Assembly (NCBI GenBank): GCA_963777585.1
Contig: CAVZRB010000017.1
Coordinates: forward strand, 21,227-85,226
Length of the DNA: 64,000 nucleotides
From: an uncultured Gammaproteobacteria bacterium
GTDB taxonomy: Bacteria > Pseudomonadota > Gammaproteobacteria > Methylococcales > Methylomonadaceae
Direction of reading: 5' to 3'
Each line of letters opens with the position of its first letter. Position 1 is the stretch's first letter. A program made the translations under genes and the position numbers. Below, one piece after another: positions 26,387 through 62,876 of the stretch. The notes below the pieces were generated by a model. That model was not told the origin of the DNA. It searched no databases and saw only the letters and a program-made list of their open reading frames with translations.

Positions 26387-28905
26387 TTATCGATCCTGGG
26401 AAATGTCCAGTTCAGCCAAACGCCGGTAGAAAGTGGCCCGGCTGATACCGAGCAGTTTGGCGGCTTGTTGGCGGTTGCCGCCCGTTTTTTCTAGGGCAGC
26501 CAGAATGCGGCCCCGCTCGTCTCCCGCGGCGGCCATGGGTTCGACAACGGCGGACACTGCGCCCCGGCTGAATTCGGGCGGCAGGTCCTGGGGATTGATG
26601 CGCTCGCCTTTGCTGTGGATGACCGCGTAGTCCACGCAGGCTTTCAGCTCGCGCACATTGCCCGGCCAGTCGTAATTCAGCAGGCATTGCATGGCTTCGG
26701 TACCGAACCGGGGCTGAGTCCGGCTGGAAAAGTGATGGCTCTGGCTGAGGAATGCTTCCACCAGAAGCGGAATGTCAGTTTTGCGTTCCCGAAGGGCCGG
26801 CACATAAAGCCGTGCCACTCGAAGCCGATAGAGCAAGTCCTCGCGGAAGCGGCCTTCACGGGCCTCGTTGGCCAGATCCTTGTGCGTGGCTACCAGGATC
26901 CGTACATCCACCTTGCGTGTGCGGGTTTCTCCAAGACGGGTTATTTCTTTTTCCTGCAGCACGCGCAGCAGGCTGGCCTGCATGCTCAGGGGCAGGTCGC
27001 CGATCTCGTCCAGAAACAGGGTGCCTCCGTGAGCGGCCTCGAAAAAGCCCTCCTGATCCTTGACGGCGCCCGTAAACGCGCCCTTGCGGTGGCCGAAGAG
27101 CTGGCTGGTCAGCAGCGACTCGCTAAGGCCGGCGGAGTTAACGGCGATGAAGGCCCCGTCCTTGCGCGGACTGGCCGCATGGATGCTGTGGGCGACCAGT
27201 TCCTTGCCGACACCGGTTTCGCCATCGATCAGCACCGTCCAGTCGCCGCGCGCCACATCATCGATGAGCCGGTAAAGCTCCCGCATGGGCTCTGAGTTGC
27301 CGAGCATCCGGCCGTAGCGGCTCTCTTCGATGGCTTGCCGCAGTTGATGGATTTCGGTGACGTCGTAGAGCAGCAGAATGTGGCGGTCGGGGTCCTGGGG
27401 ATCGTCGCGTACATCGCATTCCACCCAGTATTCTTTCCGATCCGCTCCCTGCCAATGCAGGGTGATTCGATGGCGTTCGGCGGGCGGGAGGTCCAGCAAC
27501 TGCTGCAATTGCAATTTCGACTGTATCCCGAAGGGCAACACCTGATCCCAGGGCCGGCCCATGGCGGTGTTGCGGTCGATGCCGGTAAAATGTTCACAGG
27601 ATTCGCTGACAAATTCCACGCGATGATCGGCGTCCAGCATCAGGGTGCCCACCCGGAATTGATTGAGGAGAACCAACAGATTTTCCTGGCTTTTCTTGAG
27701 TTCGGCCAGTGTATGCTCGGCCAGCGCCTCGGCTGCCTTGCGCTCGGAAATGTCGCGCACGATACCCTTGAACAAGCTGCCCCGAGGGAGTTTCACCTCG
27801 GTCACAGCGAGCTCGACGGGGAATACGGTTCCGTCCTTCCGCCGCGCCGATATTTCCCGGACGGTTCCGAGCATTTTGGCTCGCCCGGTTTTCAGGTAGT
27901 TCTCAAGGTAGCGGTCATGCTGGCTGTGGTACGGCTCAGGCATCAGCAGCTTGACGTTATGGCCCAGCAGTTCTTCCGGGCTGTAGCCGAACATGCGCTC
28001 CGTCGCAGGGTTGACGGATTGGATTGTTCCGGACGTGTCGATGGTGATGATGGCATCGAGGGAGCTGTTCAGAAGGGCGCGATGGCGCGCTTCCTCTTCC
28101 TTCAGCTTGTTTTCCTTTTCCCTGATCTCGGAGATATCGGCAAAAATCGCAACCGCATGGGTGACATTGCCTTGCAGGTTATAGTATCGGAGACGCGCTG
28201 AAATGGAGCGGGATGATCCGGCCATCGCGCCGAATCTCCATGTCGGTCACGGCCACCGTGTCGCCCGCCAGGGCACGCATGATCGGCATGGCTTCAAGCG
28301 GATAGGGCTGATCGGTGCCGGCCACGGTAACCTGGCAATACGCCGCCAGATCCCCAATCATCGCGCCCGGCTCGAATATTTTTCCCGTAATGGCAGCTGG
28401 CCGCTTTGTTGGCATAGAAGTTCCGGCCCTGCGCATCCAGAACCAGTACGCCGAAAGGGATGGTTTCGAGGCATTCGTAAAATTGCCGGGCTTGCCTTTG
28501 TACTTCGGCCTGGGCTTCCCTTTGCGCCGTGACATCCGTTTGGATGCCCACGTAATGGGAGAGCTGGCCCTGGTCATCGAAAACCGGAGCCAGGCGCAGT
28601 TCATTCCAGAACAACGTCCCGTCCTTGCGGTAATTCCTGAGGACGACCGCCACTTCCCGGCGCTCGTCCAGCGCCCGACGGAGGTGATCCAAGTCGGGCT
28701 GGTCATGGTCCTCGCCTTGAAGGAACCGGCAGTTCCGGCCCAGGATTTCGTCCTTCGCGTAGCCCGTCATGACTTCAAATGCCCGGTTCACATAGACGAG
28801 AGGCGTATCGACCTGTGTCGCGTCAGCTACAGTGATGCCACAACTGGCGGAGTCCAGCGCTTTGACGATCCAGTCTGGAATTTCTTGGTGGTTAGTTACG
28901 TGCAC
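26387..28905 (-). CDS. Sigma54 enhancer-binding protein: LOV-PAS-hemePAS-PAS-AAA+-Fis HTH (two frameshifts join ORFs 28294-28905, 28179-28706 and 26387-28225)
   Basis: LOV GRNCRFLQG/NYRKDG/FWNEL/GIQ; FixL-like LMPEPYHSQHDRY; GETGVGKE, GAFTGA, LFLDEIG, FREDLLYRL, WPGNVREL; HTH AAKLLGISRATFYRRL. Confidence 0.88.
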
Positions 28906-29476: not shown

Positions 29477-31250
29477 TTATCCCTTATTGCCTGCAGCCAT
29501 TTCCAGCAGCCGTTCTACACCAACCGGCTCTTCCTTAAGCAGCGGAACAACCGCATAACGTTGGGCATGCAACGTGGCGACGGCATTGATCTCGCGCAGT
29601 TCGTTGGCGGCGCGCTGGCGCAGCAAGGGCGATTTGGAAGTGGCTGCGGCAACACTGGTATTGATGATCCAGGCCCAGGGTTCGATGCCGGCACGTCGCA
29701 AGTCGGCTTGCAGGTTCGCGGCCTCCAGAACCGGCGTGGTTTCGGCCAGTGTGACAATCAGCACCTTGGTCTGTTTAGGGTCCTGCAATTGCATCATCGG
29801 CGTGGTGTAGTGCAGCCCGGAGCTGCCCATCTGGCGCGACACTTCACGGTGATAAGCGCCGGTCGCATCCAGCAGCAGCAAGGTGTGTCCGGTGGGCGCG
29901 GTATCCATCACCACGAACTTCTTGCCGGCTTCGCGGATGATGCGGGAAAACGCCTGGAATACGGCAATTTCCTCGGTACAGGGCGAGCGCAGGTCTTCTT
30001 CCAGCAGCGCACGGCCTTGCGCATCGAGCTTTGCGCCTTTGGTCTCCAAAACATGTTGACGGTAGCGCTCGGTTTCGGCTGCCGGGTCGATGCGGCTTAC
30101 GGTCAGGTTGTCGAGAGCGCCATTCAGCGTTTCGGTCAAGTGTGCCGCCGGGTCGGAGGTGGTGAGATGCACCGGCAGTCCGCGATGCGCCAGCTCGACG
30201 GCGACCGCGGCCGCCAGCGTGGTTTTGCCGACGCCGCCTTTGCCCATCAGCATCACCAGGCCATGACCGTCTTTGGCAATGTCATCGACCAGTTCGGAAA
30301 GACTGGGTTCGTCGAGCTCGATGGGGGAATCCACCCTGACGTGCCCTTGCACAGGTGTGTCAACCAGCAGTTGGCGCAGGGCATCCAGTCCGACCAGATT
30401 GAATGGCTTAAGCATGACCTCATCACAGGGCAGTCTCTTCAACACTTCGGGAATGTCGTTGAGGGCGGATCTGCTCACGTTCGTGAATGGCGGCGACCAA
30501 CGGATCATTGTCGGCTTCAGTGCGAGGCAGGATGCCGTTGATGACCAGATACTGATGCTGAAAGCCAATCGCCGCCAGTTCTTCATGCGTGCGGGCGACT
30601 TCGCGCAAGGTGGCTTGCTGGGCACGGGCCACCAGAATCAGCCGGGTACGGGTCGCATCGGCCAGCGCATCCACTGCCGCCTTGTATTGCTCCCGCTGCT
30701 TTTCCAGGCCGGCCAACGGGCCGAGACAGGACGCATCGCCTTTGCCTTCTTCAAGAAAGCCGCTCCAGGCGCCGGGCAGTTGCAACAGGCGAATGGTATG
30801 GCCGGTGGGTGCCGTATCGAAAACGATGTGATCGTAGCCGGCGGTCAGCGCCGAATCGGTCAGCAGCGCGGTGAATTCGTCAAACGCCGCAATTTCGGTG
30901 GTGCAGGCGCCGGACAGTTGTTCTTCGATGCCTTTCACCACCGCTTCCGGCAACACGCCGCGCACCGGGCCGACGATGCGGTCGCGGTAGGCCTGGGCCG
31001 CGGCTTGCGGATCGATTTCCAGCGCCGCCAAACCCGGCACGGCCGGAATGGCGGTGATCTGGTTGCCGATGCTGATGCCGAACACCTGGCCGACGTTGGA
31101 GGCCGGGTCGGTGCTGACCAGCAGCACCTGCTGCCCGGCATCCGCCAGCTGTATCGCCGTGGCGCAGGCAATCGAGGTCTTGCCTACGCCGCCCTTGCCG
31201 GTAAAAAACAGAAAGCGCGGCGGCTGGTCGAGAAATTTCATGTCAGTCAT
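29477..31250 (-). CDS. arsA: Arsenical pump-driving ATPase (frameshift near 30470)
   Basis: Two GKGGVGKT P-loops, two DTAPTGHT motifs, SGACTTE, SPCTEE. Confidence 0.93.
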
Positions 31251-31272
31251 GATGACATCTCCAAAGGATTGT

Positions 31273-31630
31273 TTAACAGCAGCTGCTGCCGCCACAGCAA
31301 CCGGATTCTGGCTTTTTCTTCACGCTTGGGCAATCCCGGCCCAACGTGCCAGTTCGTCGCGATTCGGATAGCGCCCGCCAACGCGACTTCGCCATCGACC
31401 AGAATCAACGGCAGCGCTTCCGCGCCGGAACGCTCCAGAAAACCTTTCACGACCGGGTTTTCGGCAAAAGCCATCGGTTGCTGGGCCAGATTGAAGCGCT
31501 CGATCTGCGCGCCGTTTTGCTTGGCCCAATCGACATCGGCAGAAAAGCCGACCAATTGTTGATCGACGTCCACACCGCAGACGCCGGTGCTGCAACACAA
31601 GGCGGGGTCAAATACTTGAATGCTTGTCAT
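31273..31630 (-). CDS. arsD: Arsenic metallochaperone (frameshift near 3' end)
   Basis: FDPALCCSTGVCG, RFNLAQQP, LPLILVDG, C-terminal CC pairs. Confidence 0.92.
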
Positions 31631-53311: not shown

Positions 53312-55518
53312 ATGGTCAACCTCACATCCAGAACTAACGACGAACCTTCAGAGCATATCGAGAAACTTCTGGAAGCAGCCAACTCTGCATCTCAGACGGT
53401 GGCGGCGCTACATGTCGCATTTGTGGCGTTCGTTGCGTATCTCGGCGTCATCGTCTGGGGCACAACGCACGATGACCTGCTGCGCATCAGCCCGGTCAAA
53501 CTGCCGATTCTGGATGTGGAACTGCCGCTTACCACTTTTTACTCCTTCGTGCCGTGGATGGTAGTCCTGCTGCATTTCAATCTGCTCATGCAATTGGAGT
53601 TGCTCTCTTGCAAACTTTGGAATCTGGACCGCGACCTTCCTGATACGCCAGCCGGGCAACAAGTACGCGACCGCTTGTTTATCTTTCCCTTCACTCACCT
53701 CATCGTAGGGCGTTCCGAAGTCTGGCTGATCCGCTGGCTGCTATCCTTGGTAGTTGGTATTACTGTCATCGCTTTACCCTTATTAATGTTGCTGGCAGCA
53801 CAAATCCGCTTTCTACCGTTTCACGACGAAGCCATCACCTGGTCGCAGCGCCTCGCGGTTTGGTTCGATGCAGCCATGCTGATTACCTTGTGGCCGTTGA
53901 TCGCCTCGCCCCAAGACCGGGCACGGGAATGGTGGCGGAACTTTAGCTTTCAGTTGCTTGGTTATTGGCCTGCTTGGCTCCGGTATTTGAGTACACTCGG
54001 ATGGAACCGGCTAACGCGATCGATTCAGCGTCGCTGGCCGAACCTGCCCGAGCGTGAAATCACCCCCAGGCCTATGTTGCAACCCGGAACTGAACCCAAG
54101 GGTATGATTTTCTTGCTGGTCTCTGTGCCGGTGATTGTTCTGATCAGTATCATCGCAGTCATACCTGGCAGTATTACCGTACAAACTTATTACGCCCCGG
54201 AAGACCTATGACATGCCTGAGGATACTCCCAACTACTTCGAGGATTGGTTGATCCGCAGAGTGCCTGAGGCATGGCTGAGTGTTGCCGCCCATAAATATG
54301 ATATGGTTTCTTGTACCTCGCTAGCAGATGGCTGAAAAGTCGGAAGCATCTATTCTTCAGGTTATGCTCGGTCCCTGCTCATGGTTCAATTTGGGCTTTT
54401 TTCCACGCAACCTAAACCTCAGAGAAGCCAGGCTGGTACCCAAAGAGGTGTCATTGTCGCTATTGACCCGGGCAATAGACCCTGATAAACAGGTACGTGA
54501 CGCTGCTTTCAAGGAATTCGACGGACTCAATTTACAAAACCGCGATCTGCGCTTTGCCAATTTGTTCGGGGCCGTGTTACCCAAAGCCGATCTTCGCCAT
54601 GTCCAGTTGCAGGGCGCGGTCCTGTTAAAAGCGAAGCTGCAGGGCGTGGTCGGTTGGGACAAAACACAATTGCAGGGCGCGATTTTGGGTGGGACTCAGC
54701 TACAGAGTGCGGGTCTGATCGAGGCGGATCTGCAGGGCGCGGATTTGCGCGGCGCGAATCTGCAGGGCGCTGCCCTGGGCTGGGCAAAACTGCAGAGCGC
54801 GGATCTACGCGGAGCGGATTTGCAGGGTGCAGACCTGAACGGGGCGAAACTTCAGGGCGCGGACCTACGCGGGGCGAAATTGCAGGGTGCGAACTTGCGC
54901 GAGACGAATTTTCAAGGTGCGAATTTGGTCTATGCGAAACTGCAGGGCTCGGACTTGGACCTTGGCGAATTACAGGGTGCAGAACTACGTGAAGCGGAAC
55001 TGCTGGGGGTTGACTGGTCACAAGCCAATCTCGATGGCATATTTATTACCGAAAGCTTGATGTCGGATTGGAACGAGCACCAACAGCGCAAGCTGGAATC
55101 AACACTCAAGCCGATACTGGATAGTGAAAAATTCAGCGCATTTCAGACACGTATGAGTTCTGCCAGTACGGGATTACCGTCGGGAAAACCGATCAGTCGA
55201 ACAGGCTGCTACAGCGATAATCCAGCCTTACTGGAATGCGAATACCGTGATCCGTTGCAACTGGATGTTTACCGTACTGACGTGCTACACCCGAAACTGA
55301 TCGAACTGGCTTGTTCGGATGCGGCAATTGCTGCCGGCATTGCAAGACGTGGTTTAAATAAGTCCACAAACAATGACCCCGATTTTGGCCTGGCAGCGGC
55401 CTTACTTAAAGCACTAGACACCCAAAATCCCTGCTCTGGCTTGACCGCACTGTCGGAACAAACTCGACAAAAATTACGGAAAACAGCAGAACAACAGGAA
55501 AGAGCCAAGCCGAAATGA
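53312..55518 (+). CDS. Membrane-anchored pentapeptide-repeat protein (frameshifts near 54205 and 54325)
   Basis: About five N-terminal hydrophobic segments, then a long run of A(D/N/K)L(R/Q)G pentapeptide repeats (about 54530-55035) and a Cys-containing C-terminal domain. Confidence 0.8.
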
Positions 55519-55663
55519 CGCAGTCTGCCGGTCATCTCGTATGGGGCGCAACTGTCCTTTGAGTTTCAAGAAAAAGATTGTCTGAGCCGAAGGCCGATTT
55601 CCGGCCAAGTGCGGAAATTCGGTATACATTTGATCAGCAACAGCGACCGGTGTGAGTCAATGA

Positions 55664-56632
55664 TTATTGGGGCTGTGCATTCAGAATCTGTATTAACTCA
55701 GCGGCGATACTGACGGCAATTTCAGCCGGTGTATGACTTTTTATCGGTAGCCCCATCGGGCCATGTATGCGCCGCAGAGATTCAACCGGGAGTCGATGCG
55801 CAAGATTGGCTTTAAGTTGTTCGATTTTCTTCAGGCTGCCTAGTACACCTAAATAACGTACACGTTTATCGGCCAGTTGTTCGGCTACTTTTTCATCGGC
55901 TTTATGACTGTGAGTCATGATAAATACAAAAACCTGATTGCCTTCAGGAATGGTGTTACCGATTTCCTGGTAGGGAATCCTCAGCTTTCTGTGCGCATAG
56001 TGGTTGTGCGCTAAGGTGTCGGGGTTATCTCGTTCATCTATGACGGTAATGTCGAAATCAAGGGTTGCGAGAATTTTTGACAAGGCCAGGCTGACATGGC
56101 CGCCGCCGATCAGATAAGCCTGCTTATAAAAGCCCACCGATTCTTGGTAAAGCCAATCATTTTCGGACTGCAGGTGGAATTGCGTTTGCTGAGGTAATGT
56201 CTGCTGCAGTTGGAGTTGAAAGCCATTTGGCGTCACGCTGATGACCCCCGGTGTTTTGTTTAGATAGATTTCAGCAAATTGCCGGTATAGCTTAATATCG
56301 GTTTTATGGCTTCGGTAAAGTAAAACGGTTTGTTTTCCGCCACAGGTCATACCGGAATCATCATTGGCTATAGATAAATTGTGTTGAAACCGACATAAAA
56401 TAGGCATAACCGATTCTGTCGCCATTAAGGAATGAGCTTTTTTGATCAAGCTGCATTCAAGAGCACCACCACCGATAGTTCCAAAACTCTCGCCTTGAGA
56501 GGTGACAGCCATTTTGGTTCCGGCTTTGCTGGGTGTGCTGCCTTCGCTGCTAACTACTATCATCAGTATTGCATCATTATTATCTTCCAGGACATCAACC
56601 ATCCATTGCCAAATATTTGCTGGTTCAGACAA
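55664..56632 (-). CDS. xdhC: Xanthine dehydrogenase accessory protein XdhC
   Basis: GSTP, GTIGGG.LE, CGG, GGGHVS, MTHSH, YLGVLGS, PMGL...TPAEIAVSIAAE. Confidence 0.9.
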   Translation of the reverse strand: MSEPANIWQWMVDVLEDNNDAILMIVVSSEGSTPSKAGTKMAVTSQGESFGTIGGGALECSLIKKAHSLMATESVMPILCRFQHNLSIANDDSGMTCGGKQTVLLYRSHKTDIKLYRQFAEIYLNKTPGVISVTPNGFQLQLQQTLPQQTQFHLQSENDWLYQESVGFYKQAYLIGGGHVSLALSKILATLDFDITVIDERDNPDTLAHNHYAHRKLRIPYQEIGNTIPEGNQVFVFIMTHSHKADEKVAEQLADKRVRYLGVLGSLKKIEQLKANLAHRLPVESLRRIHGPMGLPIKSHTPAEIAVSIAAELIQILNAQPQ

Positions 56633-57111
56633 ACAACACCTCGCTTAAGGAATAATAAACAGCCATCAAAGTCGAGAAAACGGCATTTGCTAAAAAACGC
56701 CAGGGGTAAGGAATAAAATTTTGAATTGTATAATTAACCAACAGCGAGAAGGGAGCGATTTGCACAAAAGAATCCAGGCCAATACCGATTAAACTCCACT
56801 GTATAGATGCAAACTGCCCCGAAAAACATTTAATAAAGGCAATGTGGCGGGCAATCCATAATGGATTAAAAAAAGCCTGCGCTATTAGAGCTCGTTTTAT
56901 TCCGTTCACAATACCCTGTTTTTTAAAATGGCGTTCTATCCAGGCGAAATAACAGGGAATCTCGATTGCATAAAGGGTTCCGCCCAAAAACATCATGCCG
57001 ACCAAACGCGAAATTTGAAATTCATCGGTCAGCAAGGCTGCGCAACTATCCCCTAAATGCATAAACAACAGCGCCGTGAAAGCTGTCGCGCTTGGTTAAA
57101 AGAGGCTTCAT
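56625..57111 (-). CDS. Mpv17/PMP22-like four-TM membrane protein (frameshift near 57057; true start overlaps the xdhB stop, ATGA)
   Basis: Reconstructed MKPLLTKRDSFHGAVVYALGDSCAALL...RLVGMMFLGG...KRALIAQAFFNP...NYTIQNFIPYPWRFLANAVFS..MAVYYSL follows the Mpv17/PMP22 motif order. Confidence 0.6.
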
Positions 57112-59361
57112 TTTTTATACAATGCCAGCAACACTTTCTCCGGCGTCATGGGCGCGCAGAAGTCGGGTTGCCAGTTCGGGTTGAAGGCTTGTATGGCTTT
57201 AACCAGTGCAAAGTAAGCGCCTATTCCATACATCAAAGGCGGTTCGCCGATGGCTTTGGAATGCATGACAGCAGGTGATTCTTCATGTGATAAAAGCTCG
57301 ATTTCAATCTCAGGCGCGAAATAAAGGTCCGGTATTTTGTAATTGGTCAGGTTATCGGTTTTTAAGCGGCCTTGTTGATCATAAATAATTTCTTCCATCG
57401 TCATCCAGCCCAGGCCTTGAACCACGCCGCCTTCAATTTGACCGCGGTCTACCATCGGAGTCAGGCTTTTACCCATATCATGCACCAGGCTGACCCGGTC
57501 GATGCTATAAATGCCGCGCAGGCAATCGACAGTCACTTCCACCGAGGCACAACCGTAGACATGGTAAGCGAACGGGTTGCCTTTTTCCTGGCTCCGGTCA
57601 AAAAACACGCCGGGGGTTGCGTAGTGGGCATGGGCTGATAGCGCCGTTCTGGATAGATAAGCCTGGCTGATCAATTTTCTCCAGTCAATCGCCGTGGCTT
57701 CGCCGTTTAAGTAGACTTTTTCCTGTTTGAAAGTGATTTGTTCAGCGTTGGCATCGTTGCCTAACAGTTTGGCGGCCACCGCTTTCAGGTTTTGCAGAAT
57801 TTGCTGGCAGGCCAGTAACGTGGCCGCGCCGTTAAGATCGGAACCCACACTGGCAGCAGTCGGCGACATATTGGCAATGCGTGAGGTGTTGGTGCTTTCT
57901 ACCTTGACGCGGGCTTCATCAATGGCAAACGTTACTGCGGCGATATTTCGGATTTTTTCTTTAACCCCTTGCCCCATTTCAACGGCCCCCATACTGACGC
58001 TGACCGAGCCGTCCGTATAAATATGCACCAGCGCTCCGGCTTGGTTGAGAAAGGTTGCGGTAAAAGAAATGCCAAAACAGATCGGCATCAGCGCCAAGGC
58101 TTTTTTGCTTAAAGGATGCTGGGCATTGTAGGCGTCGATAGCTTGTTGCCGGTCTTGAATGGCATAGTGTGTTTGCACAGTCTGCCAGCTGGTTTGCGCA
58201 TGACATCGCTGTGTTTGCATGCCATAAGGGAAATGATCGCCTTCTTTGAGCAAGTTTTTTTGCTGAATCTCGGCAGGGTCAAGATGCATGGTCTGAGCGG
58301 CTTTAAAAATAGCCGATTCCAATACGAACATGGCTTGCGGGCCGCCGAAGCCTCGAAAAGCCGTATTCGGCGGCAGATGCGTCCGACAGCTGTTGGCGGT
58401 GGCGCGAACATTGGGAATGAAATAACTGTTGCCGGTGTGAAACAGCGTCCGTTCCAGTATGGCCAGCGACAAGATCGGCAACCGCGCCGGCATTTTGAAA
58501 AAATTCGACTTGATAGGCCAGGATTTTACCGGTTTGGTCCAGGCCGATTTTGAAGTCGGCATCATAGGGATGGCGTTTGCCGGTCAGACGCATGTCTTCG
58601 TCACGGTTTAATTTTATTTTGACCGGTTTTTTAAGCAGAAAAGCGGCCAGCGCAACCAAAGCCGCCCATAGCGTGGCTTGTTCTTCCTTGCCGCCAAAGC
58701 CGCCGCCCAGGCGCAAAACGTCGACTTCAATCCGGTGCATCGGGCAGTTCAGCACTCTGGCACAGGCCCGTTGCACCAAGCCCGGCGACTGTGTGGCAGA
58801 AAACAACTTTAAACCGTTATTTTCCAGCGGAATGGCTAACGCGGTTTGGGTTTCCAGATAGACATGCTCCGCAGCTCCCGTACTGGCCGAGCCTTCAATG
58901 ATAAAGTCACACGCCTGCCAGGCCTTATCGACATCGCCCAGCGAGAAAATCCGCGGAGGGGCGATATGCAAGCCTTGAGCATGCGCCGTTCTGGCATCGA
59001 AAACAGCCGGTAATTCCTGGTATTCAATGTTGACCAATGCGGCCGCTTGCCGGGCGATGGTTTCGGTTTCGGCGATGACCAGCGCGATGGGTTGGCCCTG
59101 ATACATGGCTATCTGATCGGCCAGCAATACTTCTTCGGCTTCGATATTGCCGATGTTGTTAATCCCGGGAATATCCTGAGCCGATAAAATTTGCACGACG
59201 CCGGGACAAGCCATTGCGGCACGGGTATCGATGGCTAAAATCTTGCCGTGGGCGATGGTCGATACGACCGGAAAAGCATGGAGAGTCCCTTGCGGCAGCG
59301 GGATGTCGTCGGTAAATGTCGATGCACCCTGAGCGTGCAGCTCAATGTCGTTAATCTGCAT
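57108..59361 (-). CDS. xdhB: Xanthine dehydrogenase molybdopterin-binding subunit (frameshift near 58470)
   Basis: HVYLET, RLGGGFGGKE, GKRH, AFRGFGGPQ, FGISF, EMGQG, SPTAAS, SKAIGEPP. Confidence 0.92.
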
Positions 59362-60771
59362 TGAACATCTCTCCTTTAAAAGATTCAGGAAATAGTTTAA
59401 CAAAATGGGCGTAAAGCAATTGCTGCAACAACAGGCGTTTGTATTGGGCTGAACCGCGAGTATCTGAAATCGGCGCTATTTCACTTTGGGCAATTTCGGC
59501 GGCTGTTTTGACGGTTTCCAGGCACACCTTTTGGCCGACTAAATAGGCGCAGGTTTTGGCGAGATAAAGCGGAAAAGGCGCGACACCGCCGGCAGACAAT
59601 ATGCACTTTGGTTATTTTTCCAGCCTGTTCCTGAATAAGCATCGCTGAATTGACTGCGGCAATATCCAGATGCATGCGTTTGCTGACTTTTTCATAGCTA
59701 AACCGGTCAACTTGAGTTGGGATTTCGAACCTGATTTCCAATAGGCGTTCGCCCGGTTTTAAGTCGATTTGTTTATAGCCCTGAAAGAACTGCTGCAATG
59801 GGACTGTGCGCGTTTGAGAGCCTGATAGTAAGGTTAATTGGGCATCCAGCGCTAAAAAGAATACGGCCAAATCAGCAATGGGAGAGGCATTAATCAAATT
59901 GCCGCCCAACGTTGCACGCTGGCGAATCGGCGCCGAGCAGATCAATTTAAAATCTTCTGCCAGCCGGGGAAAACAGGATTGCAGCAATGGCGAGGTTCTG
60001 ATTTGCTCGATGGTGGTCAGCGCATTAATGATGCAATCACTGTTTTCCTTGCGAATAAGGGGGTGTAGTGACTCGTTTGATAAAAAATGCAGCGGTTGCG
60101 AGTGCAGCTTTTCAGGCTTTTGCACAAAAAGATCCGTGCCGCCGGCAATGAGTACGGCATTATCAAGCGGCTCGGAAGTTTTGCCAGCTGAATATTGGCT
60201 TAGCATCTCCGGCACAGTGGCAAAATAAGCGGGCAGAATTTGCCAGGCAATTAAATCTTCAATTCTGCGTTCAAGCGGCGAAGCCGACAGATCGAATTGC
60301 AGGCAAAGCGCACTGACCGCCCGTTTAATGCCGGCATACCCGGTACAACGGCATAAGTTACCCGCTATCGAATCCAGTGCGGCGCTTTCGTCCGACAGTG
60401 TGCTGTTAAGAAAAAAGCCGGTCAACGCCATGACCAGGCCGGGCGTACAAAACCCGCATTGAATGGCCCCGTTTTCCACCAACGCACGTTGAATCGGATT
60501 GAGTTGCTCGCTGTTTAGACCCTCTATCGTCACCACATGATGACCTGAAATCGCACCTACCGGCAGCAAGCAGGCATTGACTGCCTGATAGCGGATGCGA
60601 TTGTTAATGAGTTCGCCCACCAGTATCTGGCAAGCGCCGCAATCGCCTTCACGGCAGGCTTCCTTGGTGCCGGTCAAGCCCCGGTTATGGCGAATAATAT
60701 CCAGTAAAAGTTCGTCCGGGGGAACGTTTTCTTCGACACTATTGCGGTTTAATAAGAATCTGATAGGTCAT
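59351..60771 (-). CDS. xdhA: Xanthine dehydrogenase small subunit (2x[2Fe-2S] + FAD; frameshifted)
   Basis: GTKEACREGDCGAC, QCGFCTPG, GNLCRCTGY, AGGTDL, ATLGGN.INASP. Confidence 0.92.
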
Positions 60772-60776
60772 GGCAA

Positions 60777-62421
60777 TTACACTGTCAGGGAGGTGAATTG
60801 AAAGGTTCTGCTATCAAATAATCCTTGATCGCTTAATTTTAAATTCGGAATCACCAGCAGCGCCATAAAGGACAAGCGTCATAAAAGGTGCATGCAGATT
60901 GGAGCCCATTTGCTTGGCAAGTCGATCGAGTTCGGCATAACGGTTTGGCAACCCAATCGCCATCAAAATCGCTCATGAGTCCGGCAATAGGTAAGGGCAG
61001 TAATTCAACCCCTTTGAGAGAAGCTGCGGCAATCCCGCCTTTTGCCGTGATGACGCTGTTGACCGCCTTGCAAATCAAATCGGCATCGGTGCCAACTGCG
61101 ATAATGTTATGGGAATCATGCGCCACACTGGATGCCAGTGCGCCTTGTTGCAGGCCGAAGCCTTGAATAAAAGCCAATGCCGGTTTGGCCGGTCGATAGC
61201 GATTGACGACCGTCAATAGCAAAATATCGCGGTCAGGGTCGGCTACGATTTTTTGATTCTGTACTTTCGGAATTTGCAGGATTTCTTCGGTGAGCAATTC
61301 ACCGTCCAAGGCTTTAATGACCCGAATTTTTTGACCAACATGCTCAACGTCAAGATCGCCGGGCGTTATTGTCCGGGCATTAAATAAATTGATCGGCGCC
61401 GGTTTAACACTAGGTAACAGACTCTTATTGTTTTCCGCGACTTTACGTCCCGCTATCCAGGTTCTGAGCGGAGCAAAGTTTTGTAGATTATCGACTTCCA
61501 CGGCATCCATGCGGTCGCCGACTCTTAATTGGCCGAGCGGTAAATGGTAGTGGATTGATCGGATTGATACACGCACAGCGTAATACGTTGAAAATATCAT
61601 GACCTTCGGCAACAGCTCGCGCCACCAAACGATTGATATGACCTGCAATGAGATCGTCCGGATGCTTGTCATCGCTGCAGAACATGACTTTGTCCGGATG
61701 ACTGCTGATTAAAGGATGCAAGGCGTCAAAATTGCGTGCTGCCGAACCTTCCCTGATCAAAATATGCATCCCGGCGGCCAATTTCGCTTCGGCTTCAGCC
61801 AGCGTGCTGCACTCATGGTCGGTAGAAATGCCTGCTTGCGCATAGTGAGTCACATCCTGTCCGGTCAAGCCGGGCGCATGCCCATCAATCGGGCAATCGA
61901 AGCGCTGAGCTAATTGCAGTTTGGCGATGATGTCCGGGGCATTATTCAAGACGCCCGGGTAGTTCATCATTTCCGACAAATAGGTGACGGACTTGGTTTG
62001 CGAACAGACATTCCAGCTGCTCGCTTTCCAGGCGCGCCCCTGCTGTTTCGAAGGGCGTAGCAGGCACACAAGCGGGGGCGCCGAAAAAAATCGGCATAGG
62101 TGTTAATGCTGCATTTTCGATCATAAACTCGATGCCTTTAAGTCCCAGGATATTGGCAATCTCATGCGGATCGGAAATCGTCGCAACCGTGCCGTGTCGA
62201 CAAGCGATACGGGCAAATTCGGCGGGCGTCAGCATCGAGCTTTCGATGTGGACGTGGGCATCAATAAAACCGGGCAGCAGGTAGGTTGAAGCCGATTTCG
62301 GCTTATCCAGTTCGCAAAGTCGGGTAATGATGCCGTCCTCCCAAGTGATTTCCCCTGGAAAAATGCGTCGTTCATCAATTTGAACAATATAAGCGATAAC
62401 ACTGCCGTGATTAACATTCAT
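60777..62421 (-). CDS. ade: Adenine deaminase (frameshifted)
   Basis: [61 protein letters not shown]. Confidence 0.92.
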
Positions 62422-62609
62422 GGTTATTAGAGATGATCAGAATCAAAAACTATACCGGATGGTATCAATAAAAGTTCAGATGAGCGATAGCTTAAATCAG
62501 TCTTGGAGCTTGTCCGCAAATAAGTTCATAAAAAACATTATCTACCAAGACTCAAAAACTTTGGTATTAGTCCGGAAGCAGACGTTGAATCGACTTAGCA
62601 TTACCTAAT

Positions 62610-62876
62610 TCAAGTTGAGGACAATGGGCTGCCATCATACTTCCCGCTTTGGAACATTGTCAGCTCCCATCGATGCGCTAATTCATCATGCCGCAGTATG
62701 TAAATATCGTTTTCGCCTCCACGCACTTTAAAATAACGGTATTCGGGAGCTAGCCAACGGTCGATTACTTCTTCAATTTCAATAGATTTATCGCCCATAA
62801 AAAAACGTCGTGGTGTTTCCTCTCCCTTGTAACCGGCATAACATTCCACACGAATTGTTAACGGATCCGTATTCAT
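62610..62876 (-). CDS. Conserved small hypothetical protein
   Basis: IRVECYAGYKGEETPRRF...IDRWL....YFKV.....YILRHD....WEL. Confidence 0.7.
   Translation of the reverse strand: MNTDPLTIRVECYAGYKGEETPRRFFMGDKSIEIEEVIDRWLAPEYRYFKVRGGENDIYILRHDELAHRWELTMFQSGKYDGSPLSST

Follow-up and report, generated by a model that had tools for sequence, protein, structure and literature searches.

A single small membrane protein encoded inside a purine-oxidation operon offers a new view of what members of the Mpv17/PMP22 superfamily may transport. The gene, which we call X, is the Mpv17-like membrane-protein gene between xdhB and xdhC on a 64,000-nucleotide stretch of DNA (the window; contig CAVZRB010000017.1 of assembly GCA_963777585.1, positions 21,227 to 85,226) from an uncultured gammaproteobacterium of the family Methylomonadaceae. 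Profile comparisons and a predicted structure firmly place X in a divergent bacterial branch of the superfamily that the short C-terminal Pfam model overlooks, and its genomic context leads us to an evenly balanced proposal, namely that X lets urate, or a related oxopurine, out of the cell. The preliminary description of this DNA had suggested a purine or urate channel; this reading is supported here by context and by analogy with the eukaryotic relatives, and is refined toward the efflux of urate over the uptake of substrates. What is new is a bacterial branch missed by current family models, co-translated with a urate-making enzyme and alternating with urate-destroying genes. In the literature searched, no paper linking Mpv17 to bacterial xdh operons was found.

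The assignment of X to the Mpv17/PMP22 family, made earlier from motifs, is borne out by remote comparison, although the direct search with the family model PF04117 came back empty. The window's genome yielded no match to PF04117 at E <= 1, the intact homologues P0002 and P0147 match no NCBIfam family, and homologues of X are annotated as hypothetical proteins without a precomputed Pfam domain. Run against 1.84 billion representative proteins with hmmsearch, a profile of 114 X homologues (alignment A2) returned 120 matches, the most distant of which (P0235, P0236, P0239 and P0241; E 1.6e-4 to 5.9e-4) align over nearly their full length and themselves score 56.6-77.5 bits on PF04117. HHalign comparison of A2 with PF04117-type proteins gave a probability of 99.2% and an E-value of 2.8e-19 over 147 columns; the Mpv17 alignment used in it (A3) has six rows, a small number because the homologue search with the PF04117 protein P0239 gave two proteins. 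The predicted structure points the same way: the AlphaFold2 model of X, with a mean predicted local distance difference test score (pLDDT) of 92.8 and a predicted template-modelling score (pTM) of 0.84, matches an ESM Atlas cluster of plant 'peroxisomal membrane protein' sequences with a template-modelling (TM) score of 0.80 over 160 residues (root-mean-square deviation 3.0). PF04117 is present in 97% of the members of that cluster, other named families reach TM scores of at most 0.50 to X, and an ESM feature search gave 0.90 to a PF04117 cluster. A Foldseek search of X against the PDB gave nothing at E <= 0.001, and to our knowledge no member of the Mpv17/PMP22 family has a solved structure. 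In place of the organellar location of the eukaryotic proteins, X and its 359 detected relatives all lie in bacterial genomes. We also observed two very long proteins, P0186 (5253 residues; E 1.5e-16 to the X profile) and P0219 (1593 residues; E 3.8e-8), that contain 5 and 9 stretches, respectively, resembling the N-terminal third of the profile; they may be repeat proteins or artefacts.

Conservation within X follows the signature of the superfamily. The motif series examined, consisting of GD..AQ in helix 1, a later Arg, (K/R).L.DQ..F.P and a C-terminal W/N..Q..NF..P...R, is present in X, with the DQ of the third motif appearing as AQ or A. Among X proteins G20, D21, R35, E50, F81, N82, P83, W85, R88, H89, N126, Q130 and R138 are invariant or nearly so, and G20, D21, R35, F81, N82, P83, R88, N126, Q130 and R138 fall on the GD..AQ, R, DQ..P and NF..P..R columns of PF04117 proteins in the HHalign comparison; the motif residues named in the preliminary description are thus real and aligned with the family, while the exact spacings it gave were slightly off. 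Nine of the conserved residues are polar and lie inside predicted helices (D21, R35, E50, N82, R88, H89, N126, Q130 and R138), a pattern more in keeping with a route for solutes than with a passive anchor. X may form a channel and conduct a solute, by analogy with PXMP2, MPV17 and Sym1.

X is tightly embedded in its operon. Pfam searches confirm the minus-strand order ade-xdhA-xdhB-X-xdhC, and both gene overlaps noted earlier are real: the X start codon (ATG, 57111-57109) shares bases with the xdhB stop codon (TGA, 57110-57108) in an ATGA at 57108-57111, and the X stop codon (TGA, 56627-56625) overlaps the TTG start of xdhC at 56632 by 8 nucleotides. The identical 8-nucleotide overlap occurs in Methylobacter sp. 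YRD-M1 (locus L001), where all five genes are intact, with ade, xdhA, xdhB, X and xdhC encoding 544, 467, 752, 160 and 318 residues. The domain make-up of the three enzyme genes (Fer2_2, FAD_binding_5 and CO_deh_flav_C in XdhA; Ald_Xan_dh_C, MoCoBD_1 and MoCoBD_2 in XdhB; the XdhC domains listed in the table) fits a bacterial, Rhodobacter-type xanthine dehydrogenase (XDH) operon, their best NCBIfam matches are XDH models (TIGR02963, TIGR02965 and TIGR02964, respectively), and the intact ade orthologue scores above the TIGR01178 cut-off.

In the window itself the reading frame of X is broken, as the preliminary description had recognized. The frame that opens at the X start codon closes after 21 codons, and the long open reading frame (ORF) of 147 residues lies in a different frame; intact homologues, 160-161 residues long with the N terminus MKPLLTKR..GAVVYALGDSCAA, read on in frame, which argues for one extra T in the window. 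We aligned Logan contigs, assembled from landfill and groundwater metagenomes of three other studies, to positions 55600-62500 and tabulated their indels. Being 97-99% identical to the window, these contigs omit exactly one base of X, at 57055, as well as single bases at 58470 in xdhB and at 60874-60877, 60947, 61557 and 61992-61996 in ade. The two-frame reading of xdhB is further supported by tblastn against the intact L001 gene. We conclude from these alignments that the frame breaks are probably assembly (consensus) errors and that X is to be read as an intact protein of 161 residues, since all differences are single-base insertions and decay would add deletions, stop codons and larger lesions. 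A decaying pseudogene, comprising X and the entire operon, would account for the at least seven frame-breaking single-base differences within 7 kb (in X, in xdhB, in an ade split into three pieces and in a truncated xdhA) and would not be out of place in a source genome that is a 71%-complete metagenome-assembled genome (MAG). Yet we consider this quite unlikely: every difference is an insertion relative to the contigs of the three other studies with little else changed, the one at 57055 sits in a run of three T, and the window has further pairs of overlapping ORFs on one strand outside the operon, which suggest a problem that runs through the assembly. The intact homologue P0002, 92% identical to X, served as proxy for the frame-broken gene. 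The overlapping ORF pairs lie at 26387-28905 and 29477-31295, and broken genes of this kind may lower the completeness estimate of the MAG.

The association between X and purine catabolism extends well beyond the window. X occurs in 21 of 301 Methylococcales genomes with a patchy distribution (one family, 11 of 63 genera), and 18 of the 20 other Methylococcales carriers share the arrangement xdhB-X-xdhC. Across species-representative genomes 359 loci hold a relative of X; the 80 loci most similar to the query, whose neighbourhoods we inspected, belong to Methylococcales, Bacteroidota (Flavobacteriaceae, Saprospiraceae, Lewinellaceae, Cryomorphaceae and Cyclobacteriaceae), Fermentibacterota, Ignavibacteria and Chlorobiaceae. 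Locus L036 places the operon in Methylotuvimicrobium buryatense 5G, a genetically tractable carrier. At 61 of the 76 testable loci X is preceded on its own strand by an xdhB whose end lies no more than a few tens of bases away, an adjacency that spans at least four major lineages (Methylococcales 15/19, Bacteroidota 38/48, Fermentibacterota 6/6, Ignavibacteria 2/2), and xdhC directly follows X at 47 of 79. Recurrent neighbours include a 158-residue CDA-fold deaminase (28 loci), which probably represents the B. subtilis type of guanine deaminase, ModABC-like genes for molybdate uptake and a purine nucleoside phosphorylase; no permease recurs among them. A more distant member, 33% identical to X, overlaps a guanine deaminase gene whose product passes the TIGR02967 cut-off, and a Fluviicola MAG (L068) carries the CDA-fold deaminase directly before X in a locus without xdh. 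In a Chlorobiaceae MAG (L066) X adjoins a gene for a protein of the Ham1 family, which includes ITP and XTP pyrophosphatases. The survey of purine-gene neighbourhoods that had been proposed as a check thus reveals strong cross-phylum linkage to adenine deaminase, two kinds of guanine deaminase and XDH.

X does not depend on XDH for its persistence. Stand-alone copies are intact and under purifying selection, with a ratio of nonsynonymous to synonymous substitution rates (dN/dS) of 0.12, which argues that X has a function of its own. In one genome (G243; L117:4634-5996) an intact X lies amid short remnants of xdhA, xdhB and xdhC, and at another locus (L026:1865-2611; P0129) most of xdhAB is deleted, leaving an in-frame fusion of the final 88 XdhB residues to X. 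Conversely, XdhB proteins that share 72-79% identity with the L049 query, the range seen for the XdhB of X carriers, occur without X. We accordingly rejected the idea that X is an obligate subunit of XDH.

The most informative contrast comes from the slot that X occupies. Among 301 Flavobacteriaceae genomes, 16 carry X, 31 carry this XdhB clade and 14 carry OHCU decarboxylase; of the XdhB-positive genomes, 15 have X only, 14 have OHCU decarboxylase only, two have neither and none has both. One of the two genomes with neither resembles an X-type operon that lost X, and the other is a contig fragment. Both operon types begin with the CDA-fold deaminase, xdhA and xdhB and differ in what is inserted before xdhC, which is either X alone or a five-gene cassette for an allantoinase-like amidohydrolase, an allantoicase, a PuuD-type membrane urate oxidase (PF06181), an OHCU-decarboxylase/HIUase fusion and DUF6986. 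The swap is directly visible in two genome pairs (G382 against G596, and G337 against G540). On the XdhB tree the two types interleave, requiring 7 parsimony changes (bootstrap range 7-7), at least 4 of which are forced by well-supported branches; G337, with X, and G540, with the cassette, form a sister pair with 99% support. Of five independent contrasts drawn from supported branches, four run in the opposite direction, one is unchanged and none runs in the same direction. As a side observation, DUF6986 (477 residues, weakly similar to HpcH/HpaI aldolases) is the constant last gene of the cassette (L130:1273-2706 and 10 other Flavobacteriaceae loci) and may supply a missing late step, the handling of ureidoglycolate or glyoxylate.

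This alternation finds its counterpart in the gene content of the carriers. In ten tested carriers, comprising five complete methanotroph genomes together with Aquimarina, Winogradskyella, Lewinellaceae, Ignavibacteriales and Fermentibacteraceae genomes, uricase (PF01014) and OHCU decarboxylase (PF09349) were absent from all ten, and HIUase was absent from all five complete methanotrophs, with control genomes positive in each case. Allantoicase (PF03561) likewise had no match in carriers, but here the control genomes were equally silent.

We suggest that these observations are best accounted for by a short pathway in which X would handle the product. A purine base would first lose ammonia, through adenine deaminase in methanotrophs or the CDA-fold deaminase in Bacteroidota; XdhAB would then oxidize hypoxanthine and xanthine to urate, yielding reducing power; and urate, the product of the co-translated enzyme, would exit through X, a putative small polytopic inner-membrane protein acting as a passive conduit or facilitator for oxopurines. 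Since no urate-degradation pathway is found in the carrier genomes, urate is a likely dead end there. A cell with urate as a dead end needs a means of disposal; for a cell that can degrade urate, such a means is redundant and a waste, which would explain why X is lost when the cassette is present. The mutual exclusion of X and cassette in one slot thus favours product handling over substrate uptake, and the pairing of X with guanine deaminase alone suggests that xanthine may pass as well. The efflux reading further agrees with the membership of X in a channel-forming family, with the rise in body urate on loss of Pxmp2 in mice (PMC2662417) and with a YdcZ 'putative inner membrane exporter' gene that lies between xdhB and xdhC in one X-less methanotroph operon. 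The identity of the solute, urate or xanthine, and the outward direction of flow are what this context and the analogy with the eukaryotic proteins would predict.

The preliminary description had drawn its channel from a different argument, the lack of a purine permease. It is correct that no NCS1 or NCS2 gene lies inside or beside the window operon, but the absence is lineage-wide and extends beyond the carriers of X. A search for NCS2 gave no match in any of the five complete methanotroph carriers or in four of the five other carriers, and NCS1 was not found in three methanotrophs or in G302; at the same time, NCS2 occurs in only 14 of the 182 genomes of the methanotroph family irrespective of X, and in none of the 16 of genus g1. 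Because NCS2 is rare across this family with or without X, its absence is weak evidence, and we rejected it as specific support for transport. An uptake channel or facilitator for adenine, guanine, hypoxanthine and xanthine that replaces the missing permeases would nonetheless agree with these absences, with the lack of a permease among the recurrent neighbours and with the linkage of X to deaminases that act on imported bases. We regard it as unlikely, as operons that degrade urate would need an importer as much or more and all 14 cassette-type Flavobacteriaceae operons are without X.

Two further explanations dispense with purine transport altogether. By analogy with narGHJI-type operons, in which catalytic subunits, a membrane protein and a chaperone are encoded together, X might tether XdhAB to the membrane, or XdhC during maturation, with no solute pathway; its fixed place directly after xdhB, the ATGA coupling and the overlap with xdhC would suit such a role. 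We consider this very unlikely given that XdhB proteins in the carriers' identity range sit in operons without X, that X stays intact under purifying selection after the loss of xdh and pairs with deaminases alone, that it lacks any conserved ligand pair for heme or metal and that its eukaryotic relatives are not known as enzyme anchors. A prediction of the XdhB-X complex, run with alignments, scored 0.00 and gave no answer, and it counts neither way. Alternatively, X could be a general channel for small solutes or ions, or a membrane-homeostasis protein, that has no purine specificity and rides on one mobile type of xdh operon, spreading with it through inheritance and horizontal transfer. 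Non-selective channel activity is reported for MPV17, Sym1 and PXMP2 (PMC2662417; reviewed in PMC12493167), several family members lie beside unrelated genes, and between Methylococcales and Bacteroidota the identity of X and that of XdhB are both about 50%, an equality that suggests that the operon may have moved as a unit. Hitch-hiking, however, leaves unexplained both the at least four swaps between X and urate-degradation genes in a single slot with zero co-occurrence and the fact that X has paired independently with guanine deaminases of two unrelated kinds, which makes this explanation quite improbable.

Several observations nevertheless weigh against urate efflux through X, or limit how far it can be taken. 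The functional proposal for this bacterial clade is drawn from genomic context and from analogy. A wide non-selective pore of the PXMP2 kind would dissipate the proton-motive force, and the conduction mode, gating or selectivity of X must therefore differ. At the level of the gene as read, the 147-residue ORF (56625-57068) matches no Pfam family even at E <= 10, although it contains the C-terminal part modelled by PF04117 (gathering score 27 bits). The enzyme too is assigned with a caveat: XdhA, XdhB and XdhC of L001 (L001:4362-9432) fall below the XDH equivalog cut-offs (325 against 467, 773 against 849.5 and 138 against 161.6 bits), so that the substrate is deduced from the linked adenine and guanine deaminases. 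The alternation of X and cassette is documented in one bacterial family; the naive Fisher test for exclusivity (p 5e-7) overstates its significance because related genomes are not independent, and the sign test on the five contrasts gives p 0.125, the pairs being too few for significance. Linkage is described for the 80 loci closest to the query out of 359, a part of the family, and several members stand by themselves among unrelated neighbours. Anaerobes have non-canonical urate pathways, and our searches of the carriers covered canonical genes. Two complete X-carrying methanotroph genomes (G010:C1:3899111-3899377 and G178:C1:4642546-4643049) have a 237-residue frame that partly matches Urate_ox_N, the PuuD domain, at 45-65 bits. 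Finally, three XdhB-positive Methylococcales without X (G247, G259 and G117) also lack OHCU decarboxylase, which indicates that X is dispensable even where urate is apparently not degraded.

Some of these loci deserve a description in their own right. The Urate_ox_N-like ORFs sit far from the xdh operon in both genomes and may be related, in shortened form, to the membrane urate oxidase. The X-less Methylococcales operons (L113:4202-5273 in G247, L114:1239-1841 in G259 and L115:3359-4045 in G117) carry between xdhB and xdhC a gene for a 200-residue protein resembling DUF523 and 2-thiouracil desulfurase (PF04463, below the cut-off). It is the sole occupant of the slot in two of the three; in G247 it is followed, still ahead of xdhC, by a gene for a DMT_YdcZ 'putative inner membrane exporter'. 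X-type Flavobacteriaceae loci (L128, L122, L127 and others) carry, 3' of xdhC, genes for CMD, a radical-SAM DUF3641 protein, a DUF2064/CofC-like protein, a rhodanese and a PNP_UDP_1 phosphorylase, whereas Aquimarina loci instead carry the ModABC-like genes (SBP_bac_11, BPD_transp_1, TOBE and ABC_tran).

The coordinates of the operon are collected in the table below. The window lies on contig C17 of a 2.68-Mb MAG in 23 contigs, and its relatives are Methylobacter-like methanotrophs. Around the operon we noted a convergent gene on the plus strand for a 396-residue pentapeptide-repeat protein (54328-55518) and two ORFs without a Pfam match (53312-54211, plus strand; 62610-62876, minus strand). 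The XdhA, XdhB and XdhC proteins of this operon type appear to form a divergent XDH clade.

Table. Genes of the purine-oxidation operon, in window coordinates (Moco, molybdenum cofactor; FAD, flavin adenine dinucleotide; nt, nucleotide; aa, amino acids)
Gene	Position	Strand	Description
xdhC	55664..56632	-	XdhC_CoxI + XdhC_C (Pfam); predicted Moco-insertion chaperone; TTG start
X	56625..57111	-	161-aa predicted membrane protein of the Mpv17/PMP22 superfamily; 1-nt insertion in T run 57055-57057; ORF as read 56625-57068
xdhB	57108..59403	-	Molybdopterin subunit in two frames (ORFs 58303-59403 and 57108-58565), split by 1-nt insertion at 58470
xdhA	59481..60677	-	[2Fe-2S]/FAD subunit; 398-aa ORF, truncated at both ends relative to the 467-aa L001 orthologue
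ade (adenine deaminase)	60851..62421	-	Three ORF pieces (60851-61672, 61488-62069, 61942-62421) with 1-nt insertions between them

If urate efflux through X is correct, it would indicate that methanotrophs and marine Bacteroidota use purines in a way that has drawn little notice, keeping the amino nitrogen and the electrons and discarding the ring as urate, and carrier bacteria would be sources of environmental urate. It also gives the question of what this superfamily transports a specific, falsifiable hypothesis in organisms suited to knock-outs, flux assays and structure determination. MPV17 is a human disease gene, underlying a hepatocerebral mitochondrial DNA depletion syndrome. Going further, one may speculate, though we think it rather doubtful, that the superfamily consists at root of conduits for oxopurines such as urate and xanthine that arose in bacteria as the 'release' partner of XDH. 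Were this so, the urate flux of PXMP2 and the purine and nucleotide phenotypes of MPV17 loss would be inherited from that bacterial function, MPV17 would have a purine base or oxopurine as its long-sought substrate, and X would offer a simple bacterial system in which to test it.

Known systems that move or consume the same compounds differ from X in instructive ways. Members of the NCS2 family, such as UacT/YgfU and XanQ of E. coli, and the efflux pump PbuE of B. subtilis transport purine bases or urate through the inner membrane, and their genes often lie with those for purine catabolism, but these proteins are large secondary carriers of 12-14 helices, in contrast to the 161 residues and unrelated fold of X, and NCS2 was found in only one of the ten X-carrier genomes examined. 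PXMP2 (PMP22), the mammalian peroxisomal member of PF04117, shares with X its superfamily, its fold, a similar size and several membrane helices. Mouse Pxmp2 forms a channel; without it, urate has restricted access to the urate oxidase of peroxisomes, and its levels in blood and urine rise (PMC2662417). Urate is thus far the best physiological clue for PXMP2. X, in contrast, is bacterial, not organellar, and is unseen by the PF04117 model; PXMP2 is described as a wide size-selective pore, which would be intolerable if open in an energy-conserving bacterial membrane; and where PXMP2 delivers urate to its oxidase, X occurs in genomes in which no urate oxidase is found. MPV17 and Sym1 of the mitochondrial inner membrane are likewise homologous, with their GD..A(Q), Arg, (D/A)Q..F.P and N(F/Y)..P..R motifs aligning with X at a pairwise identity of about 17-30%, but the metabolic context of X is explicit, since it is co-translated with XDH. 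For MPV17 itself, deoxynucleoside triphosphate insufficiency is among the findings cited in a review (PMC12493167), and loss of the gene in zebrafish removes the guanine-crystal iridophores (PMC3711038), while its function was called enigmatic in 2025, with no demonstrated transport or substrate and with a channel activity reported as non-selective (PMC12493167). Closest to X in position, finally, is the PuuD urate-oxidase cassette, which occupies the same slot between xdhB and xdhC in sister Flavobacteriaceae operons and handles the product of the same enzyme. X and the cassette are not homologous and are mutually exclusive: the cassette degrades urate enzymatically, whereas X, as we propose, would release it.

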